From a bacterium (GTDB lineage: Bacteria > UBA8248), in the NCBI GenBank assembly GCA_965204535.1, contig OZ241996.1:512001-576000 (forward strand): DNA of 64,000 nucleotides, in the 5' to 3' direction. Below the pieces are notes generated by a model that worked only from the letters and a program-made list of their open reading frames with translations, was not told the DNA's origin and searched no databases. Below, piece by piece: positions 19,779-49,511 of the stretch. Position 1 is the stretch's first letter; every line of letters begins with the position of its first letter. Made by a program: the position numbers and the translations under genes.

Positions 19779-20549
19779 TTGAGCGAGACGACCTACAACC
19801 TCTACGCCCTGTGCCAGGGCTCGCGCACGTGCGACGCCTCCTGGCTTCTTTACTTGAGCGAATCGGGGCGGACGCGCACGCTCCCCTATTTCTTCTGGGT
19901 GCTGATGCCCGAAGGCGAGGGCGCGCCGGTCGTCATCGACACCGGCTTCAGCGAGGAGTCCCAGAAGGCGCGCAATCCCGATTACGCCGACTACCGCCCG
20001 CAGCATGAGTTGCTCAGGAATTTCGATCTCAAGCCCTCCCAAGTCGAGACGCTCATCGTGAGCCACCTGCACTGGGACCACTTCATGTCGCCGAGGCTGT
20101 TCACCGGGGCGCAGTTCTATCTCCAGAAAAGAGAGCTCGATTTCTGGCGGAGCGACGCGGCGGAATACCACTTCATCAACCATTTCCTGGGCGACCTCGA
20201 AGAAGCGGAGAAGCTGCTTGAAGCAGGCCGTATGAAACTCGTGGACGGGGAGGCGGAGATCGCCGACGGCGTGCGCGTCCACTGGACGGGCGGCCACACG
20301 CCGGGCCACCAGATCATCCGCTTCCGAACGGCGCGCGGCTGGGCGGTGCTGGCCGTGGACGCGTGCTATCTCTACCGGAGCCTCGAATCCATGATACCCC
20401 CTGGCATCCACATCCACGTTGACGACGCCCTGCGCGCCCTCGAGACCGTGAAGGACCTGGCCGACGCCCCCGACCTCATCTTCGCCGGACACGACGAGAC
20501 GGACCTGAGAAGGGAGGAGGTGTATCCGGGGGTGAGGATGTTTGTGTAG
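19779..20549 (+). CDS. Metallo-beta-lactamase fold hydrolase, N-acyl homoserine lactonase-like family
   Basis: IDTG, SHLHWDH, GGHTPGH, AVDA, AGHD; AAGGAGG RBS before TTG. Confidence 0.88.
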   Translation: MSETTYNLYALCQGSRTCDASWLLYLSESGRTRTLPYFFWVLMPEGEGAPVVIDTGFSEESQKARNPDYADYRPQHELLRNFDLKPSQVETLIVSHLHWDHFMSPRLFTGAQFYLQKRELDFWRSDAAEYHFINHFLGDLEEAEKLLEAGRMKLVDGEAEIADGVRVHWTGGHTPGHQIIRFRTARGWAVLAVDACYLYRSLESMIPPGIHIHVDDALRALETVKDLADAPDLIFAGHDETDLRREEVYPGVRMFV

Positions 20550-20587
20550 GGGAGTGGTTGTAAGGGCGGACCGATGTGTCCGCCCGT

Positions 20588-20815
20588 TCGGCTGTCGAAA
20601 AAGCTCTCCTTCTCGGGGGACAAAGGCAACCCCCCCTACCCCCCCTTGTCAGGGGGGCATGAAAGAGCAAACCTCCTCCACCCGGTGACGGGTATGAAAA
20701 AGCGAACCCCCCTCGACGGGCGTCGGGCGTCGGCCTTTTTTACCCCCCTGACAAGGGGGGGTAGGGGGGGTTGCCTTTATGGGGTTTTCCTTTCAGGGAC
20801 TTTTTCAACAACCCC
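20588..20815. mobile_element. MITE-like element with IS1182-type ends (C/G-run hairpin interior)
   Basis: GGCTGTCGAAAAA ... TTTTTCAACAACCCC; another left-type end at 20850. Confidence 0.65.
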
Positions 20816-20892
20816 TTAACAGGGGGGTAAAGGCGATGCTCCCCGCCGAGGGGGTGTTGAAAAATCCCTCCTCGCTCGGAGTTGACCACCAA

Positions 20893-21032
20893 CGTCATTC
20901 CGGCGAAAGCCGGAATCCAGAGCGTATGAGTTTGGATGCACGCAGCGTTTTATACCTTGCTATCGGCATGAGCGGCGTCAGGAAAAAAACAAAGGCGAAA
21001 CAAATGGATTCCGGCTCAAGGCCGGAATGACG
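20893..21032. repeat. Inverted pair of CGTCATTCCGGC-N4-GCCGGAATCCAG palindromes
   Basis: Same pair at 13116-13256, 50897-50974 and 55380-55512. Confidence 0.8.
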
Positions 21033-21259
21033 GTAACCTGACAGGAATAACGTCAATCTTGAAGAAGCGATGGGCGGCTCGCGAGCCGCCCCTGCAGAAT
21101 CTTTATCCTCTTGCGCCAACGGGCGGACACGCCGGTCCGCCCCTACGGGAATCAATTTGCGCCTGCTCCGTCTGACCTTGCAGTCGCCTCAGCCTGCGGC
21201 CACAATGCGCCCTCACGGCCATACACGAATCCAAACCCAAACACCAACAAGGAGACGCC

Positions 21260-22255
21260 ATGAAGAAGCCCTCCATCACTATCGTGACGACTGGCGGGAC
21301 GATATCGTCGAAATACGACACGCGAGGCAGCGGGAACGTGCCGGCGGCGGGTGCGGAGGAACTCATCGCTTCGGTGCCCGAGCTTGCCGGTGTCGCCGAA
21401 GTAAGCGTGGTCGAGCACTCGAACGTCACCAGCGACGTGATGGAGACGGCCACGGCGTTTGCGCTGCGCGACCGCCTGCGCGGGGTTCTGGCGGATGAGC
21501 AGACGGCGGGGGCGGTCGTCACGCATGGGACGGCCACCATGGAGGAGACGGCCTATCTCCTGGACCTGACGCTCGGCGGGGAGAAGCCCGTCGTGATAAC
21601 CGGCGCGATGCGAAATTCCGTCGCCCGCGACGCGGACGGCCCCCGGAACATCTTCTACGCCGCGAAAATCGCCGCTGAGCCCGAGGCGCGGGGCCGAGGC
21701 GTGATGGTCGCGCTGGACGGGGAGATATTCGCCGCGCGCGACGTCATCAAGGTGCACAGCCAGCGGCCCCATGCGTTCGCGTCGAGAGACGGCGGGCCGA
21801 TAGGGGTCGTCTCGGATGCGGGCGCCTTCTTCCACTACCGCCCCGAGCGGCGGCTTCACTTCGAGGTGTCGGCCCTCAAGGAAAACGTGCAGTTCCTGAC
21901 CGTGACGCAAGGGGTGAACGACCTGCTCGTGCGCGCGTGCATCGCTGAGCGCGTAGACGGAATCGTGGTGGAGGGCGTGGGCGCGGGCAACGTGAACGTC
22001 CCCTTCTACCGCGCGCTTTGCGATGCGCTCGACGCCGGCATCCCCGTGGTGGTCGGCGTGCGCATCTTCGCGGGCGCGCCGCACCGCGCCAAGGCGCACG
22101 AGGGCTCGTTCCTGAGCCTGATCGAGCGCGGGGCGATATCCGCGGGCTATCTGAGCGGGGTCAAGGCCCGGACCCTGCTCATGGTCGCCCTAGCGCATAC
22201 GGAGGACCTCAAGGAGCTCCGCGATATCTTCGAGCAAGCCGGGGGGAGGGGGTAG
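21260..22255 (+). CDS. L-asparaginase
   Basis: TTGGTIS, THGTATMEET, TGAMR, GAGN. Confidence 0.92.
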   Translation: MKKPSITIVTTGGTISSKYDTRGSGNVPAAGAEELIASVPELAGVAEVSVVEHSNVTSDVMETATAFALRDRLRGVLADEQTAGAVVTHGTATMEETAYLLDLTLGGEKPVVITGAMRNSVARDADGPRNIFYAAKIAAEPEARGRGVMVALDGEIFAARDVIKVHSQRPHAFASRDGGPIGVVSDAGAFFHYRPERRLHFEVSALKENVQFLTVTQGVNDLLVRACIAERVDGIVVEGVGAGNVNVPFYRALCDALDAGIPVVVGVRIFAGAPHRAKAHEGSFLSLIERGAISAGYLSGVKARTLLMVALAHTEDLKELRDIFEQAGGRG

Positions 22256-22283
22256 GGGGGAAGAACCTTTCGTCGTCTACTTC

Positions 22284-22373
22284 GCCGAAGCCCCCGACCT
22301 CATCTTCGCCGGCCACGACGAGACGGATTTGAGAAGGGAGGAGGTGTATCCGGGGGTGAGGTTGTTTGTGTAG
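22284..22373 (+). repeat. Copy of the last 90 nt of the MBL hydrolase gene (20460-20549)
   Basis: 85/90 identical by manual alignment, including the stop codon. Confidence 0.92.
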
Positions 22374-22407
22374 CTAGAATGGGCAGGCGATAATTATACG
22401 AAAGCGC

Positions 22408-22436
22408 TTGACGAAAAAATAAATGCCCGTTAGTAT
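22408..22436 (+). promoter_or_regulatory. Sigma70-like promoter for the type II RM genes
   Basis: TTGACG-N17-TAGTAT about 40 nt before the MTase start. Confidence 0.6.
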
Positions 22437-22477
22437 GGGATAAAGAATTATTCCAGGCCCGCAAGAGACCCCCGAAT

Positions 22478-23980
22478 ATGAGTAAGGGGAACGACAGAAA
22501 TGGTGGGTATCTCTCCTGCGACGCCAATGGCGCTAAGCAGAAGGGAGCTTACTATACCCCTGACCCGGTAGTACGTAGTCTGCTCAGTTGGGCTGTCAGG
22601 AATCCTGATGATCGTCTTCTGGATCCATCTTGCGGGGATGGGCGCTTCATCGCCGGCCATCCCAACAGTGTCGGTATCGAATTGGACCCGTCTGCGACTC
22701 CCGTCGCCATACATCGCGCGCCTCATGCGATGGTTCATGAGGGTGATTTTTTTGCATGGGCGAGCAACACCGAAGAGCGTTTCGAATGCGCCGCCGGGAA
22801 TCCCCCTTTCATCCGTTATCAGCGATTCAAAGGCGTTCAACGTCAAAGGGCCATAGCTCTTTGCGCCGAGCTAGGTGCCACCTTCTCGAGGCTGACCTCT
22901 TCCTGGCCGCTTTTCCTGGTTGTTACGGCCCACCTCCTGCATCAGGGCGGACGCATGGCCTTCGTTGTTCCGGCGGAAATAGGACATGCGCCATATAGTG
23001 CTCCGCTGATCGAATATCTGATAGAGCGTTTCGACCACCTGCAAATCGTCGCAGTTCGAAAAAAGCTTTTCCCCGAGCTATCGGAAGATTGCTGGCTGCT
23101 CTACGCTGACGGTAAGGGTGGCTCCACTAGCCATATAAAACTTAGTGCTCAGGAACGGTTTACCTTCAGTGAAATGCCGCCGACTGAAACAACGAATGTA
23201 AGTGTGGAAACTTGGCGCAACTCGTGGAACAAGCGCCTGCGGCCTTTTCTGTTGCCCGTAGCGGCCCGAAATCTATACGGACGACTCGCTTCAGACGAGA
23301 ACAGCTTACGATTTCGTGAATTCGCGCAAGTCAATATCGGCTATGTTTCAGGGGCGAACGACTTTTTCCACCTGCGCCCGTCCGAGGTCGAGAGACTTCA
23401 AATCCCGAGCGATTGTTTGCAAACGACGGTGCGAAACGCACGTTCTTTGCCGCCTGTGCAGGTCAATCCATCCGCAGTCAGCCGCTGGCTCCGAGAGGAT
23501 CAGAAAACGCTACTATTACGCCTGAGAAAAGAGCAAAAACTTCCCCAAACCGTTCTGGCATACCTGCGCACTTCGCAAGCTACGCAAGCTGCCGAGGCAT
23601 TCAAATGTCGAACGCGCAATCCCTGGTACGTAGTCCCGGACGTCAAGATTCCCGATTTCTTCCTTAGCTATATGTCCGGCCGACGGGTCTCTTTCGTGCG
23701 GAATGCGGCGCGTTGCGCGTGCACGAATTCACTACATGCAGTGCTGCTAAAGGACAAATCGATGCTGCCACGCATTCAAGCGGCGTTTCGTTCGGGGGTC
23801 TTCCAGTTCAGCTGCGAAATAGAAGGTCATCCGTTGGGTGGAGGCATGTTAAAGCTGGAGCCCCGGGAGGCGGGCAATATCCTGGTCCCGTCCGAAACGG
23901 CGCTTTCAGAGGATGTAAAGAAGGTAGTTCAAGACGGCATAACGGCGCTTCAGGCCTGGAGGCATTATGAAGCGGCTTGA
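22478..23980 (+). CDS. Type II N6-adenine DNA methyltransferase (gamma class)
   Basis: GAYYTP, LDPSCGDG, GNPPF, GGGMLKLEP. Confidence 0.9.
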   Translation: MSKGNDRNGGYLSCDANGAKQKGAYYTPDPVVRSLLSWAVRNPDDRLLDPSCGDGRFIAGHPNSVGIELDPSATPVAIHRAPHAMVHEGDFFAWASNTEERFECAAGNPPFIRYQRFKGVQRQRAIALCAELGATFSRLTSSWPLFLVVTAHLLHQGGRMAFVVPAEIGHAPYSAPLIEYLIERFDHLQIVAVRKKLFPELSEDCWLLYADGKGGSTSHIKLSAQERFTFSEMPPTETTNVSVETWRNSWNKRLRPFLLPVAARNLYGRLASDENSLRFREFAQVNIGYVSGANDFFHLRPSEVERLQIPSDCLQTTVRNARSLPPVQVNPSAVSRWLREDQKTLLLRLRKEQKLPQTVLAYLRTSQATQAAEAFKCRTRNPWYVVPDVKIPDFFLSYMSGRRVSFVRNAARCACTNSLHAVLLKDKSMLPRIQAAFRSGVFQFSCEIEGHPLGGGMLKLEPREAGNILVPSETALSEDVKKVVQDGITALQAWRHYEAA

Positions 23981-24872
23981 AGATTTCACGGAGAAGGATT
24001 GGAAAGTCTGCCACTGGCTCGGAGCCAAAGAGACCTTCCATCACCTCGCTACATCCAAAGAAAAAACGCAAAGTCAACACATCGTCAAGCCGCTCCATTG
24101 GTATATCGCCTGCCGTCTGGTCATTGAAGGCGGGTTTCAACCCGATGAAATAAAGCCCCATCCGCCGTTCCAGGTTGTAAAGAAGGGCACAAGCTATCTC
24201 TTGCGCTTCGATTCGAATGCGGCAAGCGGTGAAGAGGCGACTGTATTAGGTGGTCTGAAAACCAAAGATATAGACGTAGTCGTGGAAAAACCCGGTATTG
24301 GTCCTGCCATTGCTATCTCCTGTAAAACCACCGGGAAGGCGTTTCGCAATCTCACCAATCGAATGGAAGAAGCGGTTGGTGAGTGTACAAACTTGCACAT
24401 GACCTACGCTGCGCTCGTAATCGGATTCTTCTCGGTGCTTCGAGCGCATCGCGCCGGGAGCGACCCTGAGTTCCATGTCAACGACGTTGCCCTCCAGGAA
24501 GACGGAAATCCGGTGGACGGTATCGTCCGCTACCACGAAGCATTCAAACAACTACAAGGACGCGGCGACTTACGTGATTCAATCAGTAAATACGAAGCGA
24601 TCAGCCTCGCTTTGGTGGAAACGAGCGGTCCGAATACCGGAAAGTTGCTCGATACCTTCCCGCCAATGGGAAGCCCTTTACGCTTCGAACGATTCTTTGA
24701 GACGATTTACAAACGGTATGATGAGCGGTTTGTATTTGCGGCGCCTATTTTAGCCAGACGCAACGTAACACCCCGGATTGAATGGGACTCGAATTCGCCT
24801 TTATTCAACGGCGACTTGCTGATGCAACTCGGAGAAGTACCCCAACTCGATTACGAACCTCGCACTTCTTAG
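23967..24872 (+). CDS. Putative type II restriction endonuclease, PaeR7I/XhoI-like
   Basis: KDIDVVV...AISCK...FRNLTNRMEEAVG; overlaps the MTase stop. Confidence 0.7.
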   Translation: MKRLEDFTEKDWKVCHWLGAKETFHHLATSKEKTQSQHIVKPLHWYIACRLVIEGGFQPDEIKPHPPFQVVKKGTSYLLRFDSNAASGEEATVLGGLKTKDIDVVVEKPGIGPAIAISCKTTGKAFRNLTNRMEEAVGECTNLHMTYAALVIGFFSVLRAHRAGSDPEFHVNDVALQEDGNPVDGIVRYHEAFKQLQGRGDLRDSISKYEAISLALVETSGPNTGKLLDTFPPMGSPLRFERFFETIYKRYDERFVFAAPILARRNVTPRIEWDSNSPLFNGDLLMQLGEVPQLDYEPRTS

Positions 24873-24936
24873 AGGTAATGCCTTTTTCACTCATGCCATC
24901 AGAGCCAGGCCCTCTCCGCTCGGTTGATAGCGACGC

Positions 24937-25036
24937 CGGAATCAAAGCGCGGACTTTGCTCATGGTCGCACTGGTGCATATGCAGGACCCCGAGGAACTC
25001 TGCGATATCTTCGAGCAGGCCGGGGGGCGGGGGTGA
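24937..25036 (+). repeat. Diverged copy of the last 100 nt of the asparaginase gene (22156-22255)
   Basis: Translates GIKARTLLMVALVHMQDPEELCDIFEQAGGRG* versus GVKARTLLMVALAHTEDLKELRDIFEQAGGRG*. Confidence 0.9.
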
Positions 25037-25066
25037 GGGGGGAGAGCAGAGAGAGGTGTGAGGGTA

Positions 25067-25245
25067 TGTAGGGGCGGACCGGCGTGTCCGCCCTGTCGGC
25101 TCCGCGGGTCTTGCCTAACTTGTAGGGGCGGCTCGCGAGCCGCCTTGTAATTCAAGGCGCATTCTCATCCGTAGGGGACGGCCTCCGTGCTGTCCCACCC
25201 CCCGGCGTCGTCTCAGATGTAGGGACACATACGTGTGTCCCTCTC
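25067..25245. repeat. Cluster of four GTAGGG-headed REP-like hairpins with different stems
   Basis: GTAGGGGCGGACC..., GTAGGGGCGGCTCGCGAGCCGCC, GTAGGGGACGG..., GTAGGGACACA... Confidence 0.75.
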
Positions 25246-25293
25246 GGTCCCAAAACGCCCAAACAATCTCCCTTCCCGATCGTGAATGTTCTT

Positions 25294-25359
25294 GCCGGGC
25301 GCGACGAGACGGATTTGAGAAGGGAGGAGGCGTTTCCGGGGGTGAGGGGGTTTGTGTGA
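25294..25359 (+). repeat. Third, more eroded copy of the MBL hydrolase 3' tail
   Basis: CGACGAGACGGATTTGAGAAGGGAGGAGG...TTTGTGT; shares the GATTTG variant with the 22284 copy. Confidence 0.88.
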
Positions 25360-25516
25360 GGTCAATCCCGACCGGGGGGGAGAGTTCTCTTGATCCGTTC
25401 GACCCTCAAAAGATAGACTTCCGCAACATTCAGGCTCGTGTTTATTTGCATTTGCTTCCGTAGGGGCCGCTCGCGAGCGGCCCGCCTGTGTCGTGTGAGT
25501 TTCGGGAGGAAGAGAG

Positions 25517-30259: not shown

Positions 30260-30273
30260 ACATCTACCTACCA

Positions 30274-30748
30274 CGCATTTCCCCGCAATTGCCGTACTCT
30301 CTGACATCGCGGATTCCGGTATCGTGCGCGCGTCGCGGGAAAACGATTCGCCCGCATGATTTGGAATGGAACGAAAAGGCGAGGGGGCTTTCTCATGGGA
30401 TCAGGCGAAGGGTCGAGAATGAAGACGGCAATCCCGGAAGAGCGCGGGCGGCTCGCGAGCCGCCCCTACGAAGGCATAAACCTTGCTCCTTGCTCGCGTT
30501 TTGTCACCGAGAGCCGGGGAGGCGCGCTCATGGAACGGGGATGGACGATGAAAATGAAAATAATGATATTTCCCGTAAATATCGAGAAATTCACGGGGTT
30601 TTTCGATAAATTTCTGAAAAATAACGTCCAGATAAATGATTGTAATCAAAAGGGTTATCACATAAATCTGAGCGTTCTGCACTCAGATATAGCGGCAAAA
30701 AAAGTTTTTTGGTTCCCGCGCATTTGCCCGCAACTGCCCGCATTTCCT
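30274..30748 (+). repeat. Non-coding segment homologous, in inverted orientation, to the region upstream of the tandem recombinases; carries 10-bp iterons
   Basis: 30274-30335 versus revcomp 49842-49903 is 57/62; 30526-30585 versus revcomp 49709-49768 is 49/60. Confidence 0.8.
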
Positions 30749-30872: not shown

Positions 30873-31886
30873 ATGAAAGTAGGGCTCTTCATCACCAACC
30901 AGCAGTACCTCGAAACCGACATGGTCAGCGCCCTGGACGAGCAGTACGCCATGGTGCGCCTGGCGCGCGACAGGGGCTGGGACTCGCTCTTCACCGGGCA
31001 GCACTACCTGAACGAGGGCAACAACAAGCAGCTCCAGATCGTGCCCTTCCTTGCGCGCTTACAGGCCGAAGCGGGCGAGATGACGCTCGGGCTCGGCATC
31101 CTGCTCATCAACCTGCACAACCCGGTCTACGTCGCCGAGACGGTGGCGACGATGGACGTCCTCTGCCGGGGGAACTTCGTGTTCGGGGTCGGGCTGGGCT
31201 ACCGCGAGGCGGAGTTCGACGCCTTCCGCGTTCCCAAGGGGCAGCGCGTACGCCGCTTCGAGGAGTGCCTGGAACTCGTGAAGCGCCTCTGGACGGAGGA
31301 GGAAGTCACCTGGGAGGATGAGGTCTGCAAACTCGACGGCGTGCGCATGAACATCCGCCCCGTGCAGAAGCCCTACCCGCCGATCTGGGTGGCGGCCAAT
31401 AATGACAGGGCCATCGAGCGCGCCGCCCGCATCGGCGACAACTGGTTCATCAACCCCCACTCCACAACGGCGACCATCAAGCGGCAGATGGCGCTCTACC
31501 GCGCGGAACTCGACCGCTGCGGCAAGCCGTTTCCGGCGGAATTCCCCTGCATCAAGGAGGTCTTCTGCAGCCATGACAAGAAGAGCGCCCTCGAGATGGC
31601 GGGGCCCTATCTGTTCGGGAAGTACCGGGATTACGCCAAGTGGGGCCAGGACGACGCCATGCCGGAAGATGAGAGCTTCGATCAGGAATTCGACGATCTG
31701 CTCAAGGACCGCTTCGTCCTCGGCTCGCCCGAGGAGTGCTACGAGCAGCTTCGCCCCTACTGGGAGGAAGTGGGGATGAACCACCTCGTCATCCGCACCC
31801 ACTGGGCGGGGATGCCGCTATCCACGGCGCTTCACAGCATGCGGATGATCTCGGACGAACTCATGCCGGCGCTCCGGAAGATCTGA
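30873..31886 (+). CDS. LLM-class flavin-dependent oxidoreductase
   Basis: HNPVYVAETVATMD, GVGLGYR..EF, PVQKPYPPIW. Confidence 0.9.
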   Translation: MKVGLFITNQQYLETDMVSALDEQYAMVRLARDRGWDSLFTGQHYLNEGNNKQLQIVPFLARLQAEAGEMTLGLGILLINLHNPVYVAETVATMDVLCRGNFVFGVGLGYREAEFDAFRVPKGQRVRRFEECLELVKRLWTEEEVTWEDEVCKLDGVRMNIRPVQKPYPPIWVAANNDRAIERAARIGDNWFINPHSTTATIKRQMALYRAELDRCGKPFPAEFPCIKEVFCSHDKKSALEMAGPYLFGKYRDYAKWGQDDAMPEDESFDQEFDDLLKDRFVLGSPEECYEQLRPYWEEVGMNHLVIRTHWAGMPLSTALHSMRMISDELMPALRKI

Positions 31887-47160: not shown

Positions 47161-48330
47161 TCAGAGAATATCCTCCGCGATGCTCTCCGCGACCCGCCCG
47201 GCCGCCTCCTGGGCCGAGTCGCGCGCGAGGTGCGCGTAGCGCGCCGTCGTCTCCATCTTGCTGTGGCCCAGGAGCTTCCCGATCACGGGGAGCGCCTCGC
47301 CGAGCGCAAGCGCCCGCGAGGCCCAGGAGTGGCGCAGGTCATGGATCCGCACGCCTTCGAGACCCGCGCGCTCCCTTATCGTTCGCCAGGCCTCGTCGAC
47401 GTTCCTCAAGGGCGTCCCCGGCTTCCTCCCCGGTATGACCCAGGGGCCGTCGTGGGCGCTCAGGAGACTCGCGAGGAGCTCGACCGCCTGCGGCGGGAGC
47501 GGGACCGCCCGCGCGCCCGTCTTGGAATCGGGCAGCCTGAGTTCGGCCGCTTCGAGCGCCACATCCTCGCGGCGCAGCCCGAGCACCTCGCTCCTGCGGC
47601 ACCCGGTAAGCGCCAGGAGCCGGATGGCGGCCACCGCGGACGCGGACGCGCCGCCCCGGGCCTCCGCCTCCTCGAGCGCCTCTCCCAGGCGGGTGAACTC
47701 CGAATCCGTCAGGAACCGCTCGCGCCTGCGCTCGGGGTATTTGACGAGAGCCTTGCAGGGATTCGGGGTTCCCTCGGGAACCATTCCCCAGCCCGCGGCC
47801 AGGCGGTACATCGAGGAGAGGATGCGGAGCGCCGTGTTCGCCACCGCGGGCGTCTCGTAGAGGCTCTCGTGGAATTCCGCCACCTGCGCGCGAGAGAGCG
47901 CGGCCAGCGGCAGCCTGCCCAGGGCGGGCAGGACGTGGCGGTCGATTACCGATCGGTAGAGCGCGGCGGTGCCCGGCCTGCAGCGCACCGCGACGTATTC
48001 CGTGAGATAGCGCGCGCACACCTCATTCACCGTGGGGCCTCCCGCCGGCTTCATCGGCTCGGGAACCGCCTCCTCGCCCGCCTTGATACGCGCGATGATG
48101 TGGGCGGCGCGTTTTCTCGCCTCGTCGGCGTTGATCACCCCGTGGCGGCCCACGGCCACGCGTTTGGGACCCTCGGGCCCCCGCGCCTGGGCGACGTAGA
48201 CCTTGCTCCCGGTGGGATAGACCCTCACGCCGAAGCCCGTGAGCTCCCGGTCCCAGTACACCGTGTCCTTCTCCACTTTCAATTTTGCGACCGCGCGGTT
48301 CGACAGCGTTTTCATGACGGGCTGTTTCAT
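47161..48330 (-). CDS. Tyrosine recombinase/integrase with N-terminal arm-binding domain, copy 2
   Basis: WDRELTGFGVRV, TGCRRSE, DSKTG, HDLRH, LGH, RYAH. Confidence 0.93.
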   Translation of the reverse strand: MKQPVMKTLSNRAVAKLKVEKDTVYWDRELTGFGVRVYPTGSKVYVAQARGPEGPKRVAVGRHGVINADEARKRAAHIIARIKAGEEAVPEPMKPAGGPTVNEVCARYLTEYVAVRCRPGTAALYRSVIDRHVLPALGRLPLAALSRAQVAEFHESLYETPAVANTALRILSSMYRLAAGWGMVPEGTPNPCKALVKYPERRRERFLTDSEFTRLGEALEEAEARGGASASAVAAIRLLALTGCRRSEVLGLRREDVALEAAELRLPDSKTGARAVPLPPQAVELLASLLSAHDGPWVIPGRKPGTPLRNVDEAWRTIRERAGLEGVRIHDLRHSWASRALALGEALPVIGKLLGHSKMETTARYAHLARDSAQEAAGRVAESIAEDIL

Positions 48331-49511
48331 CCGTGCTCAACCCTCCCGTTGGCGACGTGGGCGCCGATGTTCCCGCCCACCCGCACCGCCGCCTCCCTCT
48401 CGGCCTCGCGCATCAGGTGCGCGTAGCGCGCGCTCGTCGCCACGCTCGTGTGGCCGAGGAGTTTCCCGATCGTGTAGAGGCTCTCGCCCAGCGCCAGCGC
48501 CCTCGACGCGTAGGAATGCCTGAGGTCGTGAAGCCTTACGTCTGCGAGCCCCGCCCGCTCCCTTACGGGCCGCCAGTAGTGGTGCAGGCCCGTGAGGCGT
48601 TTTCCCGGCCTTTGGCCCGCGATCACCCAGGGGTTCTCCCCGGAGCGGGGGATGGCGTCCAGTATCCTGAGTACGGGCCTGGTCAGGGGGACCATCCGGG
48701 GACCCGCCTTGGCGTCCCTGAGTCTCAGGTCCCCAGCCGTGCGGTCCACGTCGTCCCACCCGAGATTCAATATCTCGCCCCTGCGGCACCCGGTAAGTGC
48801 GAGCAGCCGGATGGCCGCGATAGCGGGCGGCCATACCCCGCCCTCCGCCTCGGCTTGCCTGAGCGCACGGCCCAGCCTCCGGTATTCCTCAGGCGTCAGG
48901 AACCGCTCGCGCGCCTGCGTCCTGTAGCGGCGCACGGCGAGGCAGGGGTTCCGCCCGGGCGGGACCAGCTCCCACGCTTCGGCAAGTACGAACATGCGCG
49001 AGAGCAGATGGACCGCCTGGTTCGCCAGGACCGGCGTATCGCGAAGGTCGTGATGGAGCGCCGTGACTTCCGCTCCGCCGATCTCGGTAAGCGCCGTCCC
49101 GCCCATGGCCGGCAGGATGTGTTTGTCGAGCACGGTGCGGTATGCGGCAACGCTGGCGGGCTTCAGGTGTTTCTCCACGTGGGTGCGCATGAAGCGTTCG
49201 GCGAGTCCCGCCACGGTGGTCTCCGCCCCGGGCGCCGCGGCGCTGAAATCCTCGCCGCGCTTGATGCGGTCGATAATGAGGGCGGCCTGTTTCCTGGCCT
49301 CATCGACGGCCAGCTCCCCGTGACGGCCGAGCGTCACGCGCCTGGGACCCCCGGGTCCCCGGGACTGCACCACCCAGGTCTTTCTGCCGGTGGCGTGGAC
49401 GCGCACCCCGAAGCCCGCCAGCTCCCGGTCCCAGAAGACGCCGTCCTTCCCGTCGGCCTCGAGCGCGTCGACGGTGCGCTTGGTGAGTTTCAGATCGCTT
49501 CGCTTCGGCAT
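48327..49511 (-). CDS. Tyrosine recombinase/integrase with N-terminal arm-binding domain, copy 1
   Basis: WDRELAGFGVRV, TGCRRGE, DAKAG, HDLRH, LGH, RYAH; GGAGG RBS; 4-nt overlap with copy 2. Confidence 0.93.
   Translation of the reverse strand: MPKRSDLKLTKRTVDALEADGKDGVFWDRELAGFGVRVHATGRKTWVVQSRGPGGPRRVTLGRHGELAVDEARKQAALIIDRIKRGEDFSAAAPGAETTVAGLAERFMRTHVEKHLKPASVAAYRTVLDKHILPAMGGTALTEIGGAEVTALHHDLRDTPVLANQAVHLLSRMFVLAEAWELVPPGRNPCLAVRRYRTQARERFLTPEEYRRLGRALRQAEAEGGVWPPAIAAIRLLALTGCRRGEILNLGWDDVDRTAGDLRLRDAKAGPRMVPLTRPVLRILDAIPRSGENPWVIAGQRPGKRLTGLHHYWRPVRERAGLADVRLHDLRHSYASRALALGESLYTIGKLLGHTSVATSARYAHLMREAEREAAVRVGGNIGAHVANGRVEHG

Follow-up and report, generated by a model that had tools for sequence, protein, structure and literature searches.

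The locus described here lies in a 64,000-nucleotide stretch of a bacterial genome (assembly GCA_965204535.1, contig OZ241996.1, positions 512,001 to 576,000 of the forward strand), which we call the window. Between 19.7 and 31.9 kb of the window, a gene for a metallo-beta-lactamase (MBL)-fold hydrolase and a gene for an LLM-class oxidoreductase (LLM) enclose an asparaginase gene, two restriction-modification (RM) units and three displaced gene ends, or tails, two of which are copies of the 3′ end of the MBL gene (tails A and B) and one of the asparaginase gene (Table 1). An earlier reading of the letters alone (the original prediction) had described this order and tails that extend to the stop codon of the gene; the three tails are confirmed. 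How might such an array have been built? We consider it probable, if far from assured, that it was assembled stepwise by host recombination on short homologies, without an integrase, and that the tails are the scars of these steps.

The genome under study (G000) is a metagenome-assembled genome (MAG) of 4.56 Mb, 95.7% complete and with 5.3% contamination. It was compared with 22 relatives of the same genus (23 genomes in all, G000–G022), whose fetched loci carry L numbers, and with sequencing runs seen as assembled contigs (X1, X2, X4, X5 and X6), of which X4 belongs to another study and is recorded as a sponge metagenome. Orthologues of the MBL protein at 89–95% identity occur in records named Nitrospinota bacterium. 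A custom script called 3,805 genes in G000; every called gene was compared with the genome, low-copy fragments in intergenic DNA were kept, and copies within 40 kb were termed local. The open reading frames (ORFs) of the inserts were only partly scanned for families. The names REP (repetitive extragenic palindrome), ArfB, ComM, RIT and attL/attR are used as labels for Pfam or NCBIfam families or for layouts.

Table 1. Features of the MBL-LLM interval, in window coordinates.
Feature	Position	Strand	Evidence or remark
MBL-fold hydrolase, AHL (acyl-homoserine lactone)-lactonase-like; left anchor gene	19779..20549	+	Pfam Lactamase_B; NCBIfam AiiA-like below cut-off
REP-like palindrome cluster, genome-wide families	20560..21146	.	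665 BLAST matches for this intergenic stretch
Asparaginase; mobile cargo, also anchor gene	21260..22255	+	Pfam
28-bp spacer, asparaginase stop to tail A	22256..22283	+	
MBL tail A, last 90 bases of MBL	22284..22373	+	85/90 identical
Portable upstream module	22374..22477	+	sigma-70-like site at 22408-22436
Type II N6-adenine methyltransferase, Eco57I/PaeR7I-like	22478..23980	+	PADLOC MTase_II E 3e-88; Pfam
Putative restriction endonuclease, 301 aa, weakly XhoI-like	23967..24872	+	E 4e-4
Asparaginase tail, displaced gene end	24937..25036	+	BLAST 24942-25034, 78/93; 82% over 109 bases ungapped
Native asparaginase downstream flank, ending in 23-bp REP	25037..25144	+	aligns to DNA after the asparaginase stop of G016 (empty site)
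Upstream side of tail junction J1	25145..25290	+	common to distant locus of G011, G012
MBL tail B	25291..25359	+	60/69 by BLAST
Type ISP gene leader	25360..25516	+	after ArfB-like gene in G008, after 34-bp ArfB tail in G021
Type ISP restriction-modification enzyme, 1580 aa	25517..30259	+	Pfam, PADLOC
Dispersed intergenic repeat; right end of many cassettes	30271..30345	+	33 BLAST matches in genome
LLM-class oxidoreductase, right anchor gene	30873..31886	+	Pfam, NCBIfam

The RM genes have a GC content of 0.52-0.53, against about 0.62. The type ISP enzyme unites in a single chain an Mrr nuclease, a superfamily 2 (SF2) helicase, a coupler, an N6 methyltransferase and an ISP specificity domain (Pfam Mrr_cat_2, ResIII, Helicase_C, ISP_coupler, N6_Mtase and Type_ISP_C). 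As for the type II RM unit of the original prediction, its methyltransferase is clear, but its nuclease is so only in part: the 301-aa protein finds no match in Pfam, PADLOC or NCBIfam, and its Atlas neighbours are unnamed clusters plus the XhoI family at 0.88, which we regard as a lead only. The gene is kept at 86-88% DNA identity in five relatives. The upstream module (about 100 bases) is found before three unrelated RM systems across the genus (L031, L033, L141, L142, L144, L146, L147 and L158) and stands directly after the stop of a full MBL gene in G004 and G006; it may represent a portable RM promoter. The spacer before tail A has no copy in the 22 relatives, and its other matches fall within an unrelated gene. 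The dispersed repeat at the right has a sharp left edge and mostly lies 350-780 bases upstream of the next gene.

What are the tails copies of? All three run to a stop codon (TAG or TGA), and BLAST found no further copies of them in the 4.56-Mb genome except one 35-bp MBL match (E 4e-5). The synonymous changes listed in the original prediction are present. Chance would make about 24% of the differences in the window tails synonymous; in fact 15 of 28 are. Taking the three tails together, the tail base is also found in a working allele of a relative at 25 of 34 differing sites, and the other nine differences are private and include the clearly damaging changes. Together with the genome-wide codon count given below, these states support the predicted descent of the tails from formerly functional alleles. 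The DNA behind the asparaginase tail matches that behind the asparaginase stop of G016, where the gene is in single copy and the site is empty; the insert is 2,686 bp long, is flanked by a repeat of 93-109 bp and holds no other mobile gene. Eleven of the 35 private sites of the G000 asparaginase gene fall in its last 97 bases. Behind tail B, the DNA is similar to the flank that MBL has in G014 and G017; this short flank is itself a small repeat and also follows an ArfB-like gene in G008.

The same kind of duplication is found throughout the genome. All 48 local gene-fragment copies are in direct orientation. After the removal of nine hits (a small-ORF tandem cluster and two hits of >300 bp), 39 remained, comprising 23 tails downstream of their gene, six heads upstream, two tails upstream and eight internal fragments (three of them close to the stop), where uniform placement would give 0.6 downstream tails and 1.3 upstream heads. 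The tails belong to unrelated anchor genes, measure 45-181 bases (median 90), and the copies are 79-99% identical. For the codon count, five of 32 events were set aside (a paralogue pair, a repeat protein and three short or doubtful anchors). In the other 27, 132 of 243 differences are synonymous (pN/pS 0.27). This exceeds the 39% predicted for the decay of an exact duplicate combined with synonymous drift of the gene (P 1e-6), and an exchange of alleles in the working gene at a later time could likewise raise the synonymous share. In this genome-wide scan, of the kind that the original prediction had suggested, just 12 of these 27 inserts, nested events being treated as separate, hold RM, toxin-antitoxin or PADLOC-type genes, and the rest carry metabolic, host-interaction or unknown genes.

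Individual loci illustrate the pattern. At an MFS gene, the displaced tail equals the working end of G011 at 59 of 59 positions, the working end of G000 differs at four sites, and immediately before the tail there are two private sites. An arginase tail of 58 bases is present in seven relatives and one of 186 bases in G022, with three different starts at this gene; the constant 58-base tails have the same spacing, and a single event passed on by descent is the best reading. At the arginase locus of G000 (L068:4121-4176), the tail stops 3 bases before the start of the next gene, and it may therefore keep the ribosome-binding site of that gene. Tail starts also differ at FrsA-like and thiolase genes, and another gene of G006 is followed by two stacked tails. 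Long duplications exist as well (260 bp in G020, and 244 bp, near-identical, at an S41 gene). At a further locus of G000 (L063:4812-7587), the ComM-like gene serves as anchor, with an LLM gene inserted behind it, a 154-base tail duplication, and the ComM-like gene whole.

We compared the interval across the genus, where it proves to be a hotspot for defence genes. In the relatives fetched, the MBL gene adjoins the mrp operon, and MBL and LLM both lie within 11 kb in 17 same-genus genomes, G000 included; the other six of the 23 fetched stretches meet a contig end or a different neighbour. The locus is far from invariant, since different cargo follows the same gene ends: type III RM in G020, G001 and G009, large methyltransferase-like proteins in G014 and G019, a Dsr1-like SIR2 protein in G013, a TmtA-like helicase in G015, DUF4062 proteins in G022 and G008, and a CHAT protein with a cyclase protein in G002. 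It is nearly empty in G012, G011 and G017. RM or PADLOC-type genes occupy nine of the 17 intervals, two of these on weak matches, and an MBL tail lies within the interval in only two (G000 and G022). Some relatives have the asparaginase gene behind MBL and others have it on the opposite strand past LLM, so it is mobile cargo rather than a fixed flank. A search for the exact MBL-end pattern returned four metagenome loci, all with full genes without tails and three of them identical, and no match in viral contigs. In G011 (L025:4606-6997) we observed the mirror case, in which an MBL head copy with an internal deletion is followed by a MORN-repeat gene and then by the full gene. At L158:6296-7966, an OLD-like ATPase-TOPRIM gene stands between MBL and the type II RM, with no intervening tail.

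Tails also occur far from their parent gene. Nine extra MBL tails are found in seven of the 23 genomes, and six of them are far from MBL, at three loci in five relatives: four at a second hotspot between nuclease-SDR and SPFH/NfeD genes (G011, G012, G014 and G021) and, in G003, two at other loci. A junction termed J1, made up of tail B and the 120 bases that precede it, is the same in G000, G011 and G012. Behind it lie the type ISP gene in G000, a SacI-like RM in G012, four genes in G011, the last being ZorB/OmpA-like, and the type II RM of this window in an X5 contig. A second junction, J2, precedes the type II RM of this window in G021, a type III RM in G003 and, in a possibly deleted form, a Dam/N4/XhoI-like RM in G014. 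Three cargoes behind distant tails match cargo right behind the full MBL gene in G020, G004 and G013 (90%, 86% and 70%), and the type ISP gene is found behind a full ArfB-like gene in G008 and behind a 34-base ArfB tail in G021. Within G000, eight distant tail copies of other genes were counted, against 0.4 expected, two of them right before low-GC genes. With different cargoes behind one inherited junction, tails seem in part to be passengers, and they may also be landing pads that can be used again. Of the options in the original prediction, homology-anchored insertion that duplicates a long target fits the asparaginase tail. Tails A and B likewise look locally like target duplicates, but tail B need not be one, as J1 and its tail are also found at a locus remote from MBL in G011 and G012.

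Could the assembly have fused co-occurring strains into a chimeric stack? Some contamination of the MAG and uneven depth in X2 would allow it. However, X1 and X2 contigs cover 22332-25440 and the passage from asparaginase to tail A with no differing letters, and X1 depth is even (26-28) across the bridged junctions. Pieces from X4, the other study, cross the asparaginase-tail A, tail A-methyltransferase and endonuclease-asparaginase tail-J1 junctions at about 5-9% difference, and J1 recurs in two single-locus relatives. The stack is therefore real, and we hold a chimera to be extremely unlikely. The predicted excisable array has fared less well. Excision is possible in principle, the longest identical stretches between copies being 15-32 bases. 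No excised form was seen in contigs, and the same stack is kept in a strain about 9% diverged. A tail-to-tail joint in G000-type DNA was not among the matches listed; since contigs lose rare forms and break at a 32-bp stretch common to MBL and tail A, this is no evidence either way. One X4 contig has a circle-like joint that steps back 2981 positions. We read it as a second copy of the upstream module placed behind tail B: the span also occurs in a different contig, with letters of its own and at equal depth, and the loose end fits the longer module of G012. Alternatively, it may be a circle.

Site-specific integration was also considered. Integrative islands at tRNA genes or other gene 3′ ends restore the gene and displace its old end, and the original prediction had proposed such fixed-site insertion, possibly served by an integrase in trans that could also excise the cassettes. 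The gene-tail-cargo-tail layout recalls attL/attR, the 58-bp arginase tail has a constant start in several genomes, and the genome holds 39 tyrosine recombinase matches above the cut-off. Against this, tail starts are not fixed: those of MBL fall at gene positions 573, 670, 681/682, 701 and 737, the targets are more than 20 unrelated genes with no motif in register at the tail starts, and the constant arginase tails are explained by descent. As predicted, no integrase or transposase gene was found between 19.7 and 31.9 kb; the nearest tyrosine recombinases lie at 47.2-48.9 kb of the window. None of the 27 events encloses a tyrosine recombinase, and one has such a gene within 10 kb. Searches for an integron integrase gave at best 85 bits against a cut-off of 265, which the control genomes likewise failed to reach, and a search of the genome, at its stated completeness, for large serine recombinase domains gave none. 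No tRNA was found at the unit and no Rfam match in 19-31 kb, so that the unit differs from integrative islands in lacking an integrase, a fixed crossover and a tRNA. Rolling-circle (IS91-type) capture, which would fix the right end, was considered as well: a search for Y2 transposases had no match, yet its control also gave none, and one weak partial match to a REP-associated Y1 transposase was obtained. With five MBL tail starts and no insert that holds a tyrosine recombinase, a site-specific integrase, in trans or otherwise, appears very unlikely, and this explanation is already largely refuted by the variable starts. The recombinase genes at window 47224-48902 belong to multi-copy gene pairs, also present elsewhere, that we presume to be RIT-like, and there is a second multi-copy family of about 360-390 aa.

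We therefore return to stepwise assembly by host recombination, for which we propose the following steps. The layout, the polarity, the allelic descent of the tails, their varying starts and cargo and their presence at distant loci are shown; the enzymes, the way in which DNA is taken up, the form of the donor (circular or linear), the sequence of steps and any reuse of tails as landing pads are proposals. DNA from a relative would pair at one end through a piece of the anchor gene or a dispersed repeat, and would be joined illegitimately at the other; it might enter directly, or after trimming and circularisation, by a single crossover. With the upstream gene as anchor, that gene would gain a new 3′ end, and the old end with its own flank would be displaced behind the cassette, as may have happened at the asparaginase tail and most of the 23 downstream tails, the heads being the mirror case. 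With a right-hand anchor, or by transfer between REP-like repeats, the end of the donor's upstream gene would be carried along as a passenger, as for the distant MBL tails and probably tail B. An existing tail could then offer homology by which any cargo found behind the parent gene at other sites is swapped in. Selection would favour events that do not damage the gene, and long duplications would be lost again by recombination; we propose the two together as the cause of the tail lengths of 45-181 bases. For the window, a plausible history begins with the joining of an MBL-asparaginase allele to a J1-ISP block within a 23-base REP common to both, after which the unit of tail A and type II RM would have entered at the asparaginase end. 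Genes for DNA uptake and processing (ComEC, DprA and the ComM-like gene, of the YifB family) are present. An illegitimate joint of this kind would be expected to show microhomology of 3-10 bp; a single X6 contig carries the asparaginase end, the spacer and about 10 bases of tail A, then leaves the window for different DNA.

Two other routes to the same layout deserve attention. Unequal recombination at REPs could have produced a longer tandem of two hotspot alleles (a merodiploid), from which deletions left the last codons. Merodiploids made by transformation are reported (PMC3784515), junctions lie inside shared REP-like repeats (23 bp common to G000, G016 and G011), J2 of G014 resembles a deletion derivative, and the long duplications in G020 and at the S41 gene would be expected. 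Such erosion should, however, leave internal fragments as often as ends, where only 8 of 39 copies are internal, and no whole second MBL or asparaginase copy occurs in the fetched loci; we judge this origin unlikely. In the model of PMC2853133, the incoming restriction enzyme makes breaks that lead to an insertion with a long and exact duplication of the target, and the two copies diverge later. RM is the main cargo at this hotspot, and the asparaginase-flanked unit agrees with that paper's definition, its second RM gene being only weakly XhoI-like; but most inserts genome-wide lack a restriction enzyme (the 27 events include two distinct RM units), the copies represent different alleles rather than decayed duplicates, and no target gene lies near the distant tails, which makes the model quite unlikely here.

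Several observations speak against stepwise assembly by host recombination. At 33-70 bases and 85-95% identity, the homologies are short for RecA to act on. The evidence is comparative throughout, and no recombination was seen to happen. The asparaginase C-terminus evolves fast in most relatives, and the asparaginase tail has 17-18 mismatches to G002 and G016, where the working end has 13-16; because the tail is thus no closer and the C-terminus fast, donor and recipient are not told apart at this gene. The type II RM occurs without any tail in G006, G008, G014 and L158-L160, polarity is mixed at several other loci, and some distant tails are on short MAG contigs (G003 and G021). K-mers common near tail starts were borderline (P 0.04-0.07), and the 39 recombinase matches belong here too. 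Classical homology-facilitated illegitimate recombination (HFIR) gives deletions, not duplications, according to the part of PMC3240628 consulted, and the products here carry duplications rather than a deletion of recipient DNA beyond the anchor.

The basic type of insertion is known; stacking, allele mixing, passenger tails and generality in a genus are added here. Insertion with long target duplication was described for RM genes that direct repeats enclose (Furuta, Abe, Kobayashi 2010, PMC2853133); these repeats often cover a start or a stop codon without damage to the gene, for the most part in competent species. As in that paper, we find RM genes between direct repeats of >30 bp, no other mobile genes, an insert of <20 kb and an empty site in a relative; unlike it, the copies here are different alleles, events are nested or stacked, cargo is mostly non-RM and tails lie far from their gene. 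Its supplementary figures may include stacked cases. Type VI secretion system (T6SS), Rhs and contact-dependent inhibition (CDI) modules form sequential displacement arrays, for which HFIR was proposed (Kirchberger 2017, PMC5361080). From the sections seen, these share with our loci integrase-free arrays, insertion anchored by a conserved gene and older modules pushed downstream; there the anchor is a toxin gene and the remnants are immunity genes or toxin tips, whereas here unrelated metabolic genes are the anchors and what is left behind is the end of the anchor itself. Foreign DNA flanked by a variable gene-end duplication is likewise the product in E. coli, where trimmed and recircularised DNA, by a recA-dependent single crossover, yields gene-end duplications of 109-950 bp (PMC3240628, in part). 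That system is laboratory conjugation at very low frequency and would not by itself explain passenger tails. Homology-assisted illegitimate recombination is discussed in PMC2884548, of which a part was seen. Recombination at core genes in the flanks also diversifies hotspots that lack mobile elements; these have the same fixed gene pair around fast-changing, often defensive cargo and no integrase (Oliveira 2017, PMC5635113; PMC10250203), but a double crossover in both flanks swaps cargo and leaves no tail, and the portions seen of these papers do not mention gene-end scars or traffic between hotspots. In the literature covered, which included few subscription papers, neither tails remote from their gene nor an exchange of cargo behind an inherited tail were described; this is weak evidence that both are new.

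How integrase-free defence hotspots are built is stated as an open question in the part of PMC10250203 that we saw. Gene-end scars offer a cheap and countable footprint of this process, which self-comparison of a single genome can find; they tell which gene a cassette last sat behind, and nested arrays suggest an order of arrival. More tentatively, displaced tails might act as reusable landing pads, an anchor scrap of 60-100 bases opening a new locus to the cassette pool of the parent hotspot. It is possible, at rather less than even chances, that together with the dispersed repeats at the right ends they form a genome-wide, integrase-free network for the exchange of defence cassettes; that the tails would then record both provenance and arrival order is equally speculative. 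If tails do act in this way, hotspots could seed new hotspots without a dedicated enzyme. Because several inserts have no Pfam match, scars also flag candidate defence genes of no known family.

Two observations concern the cargo of distant loci. The four genes behind J1 in G011 (L145:4216-9063) encode proteins of 498, 275, 363 and 483 aa, only the last of which has matches, and they could possibly constitute an undescribed Zorya-like system. A second defence hotspot stands behind an SDR gene (G000:C2:1296000-1308500, L157, and L144-L156), where we saw an AbiL-like pair in G000, a type IIG enzyme in G016, a Upx-like gene in G006 and, in G020, an Hhe-like helicase with a 260-base SDR tail.

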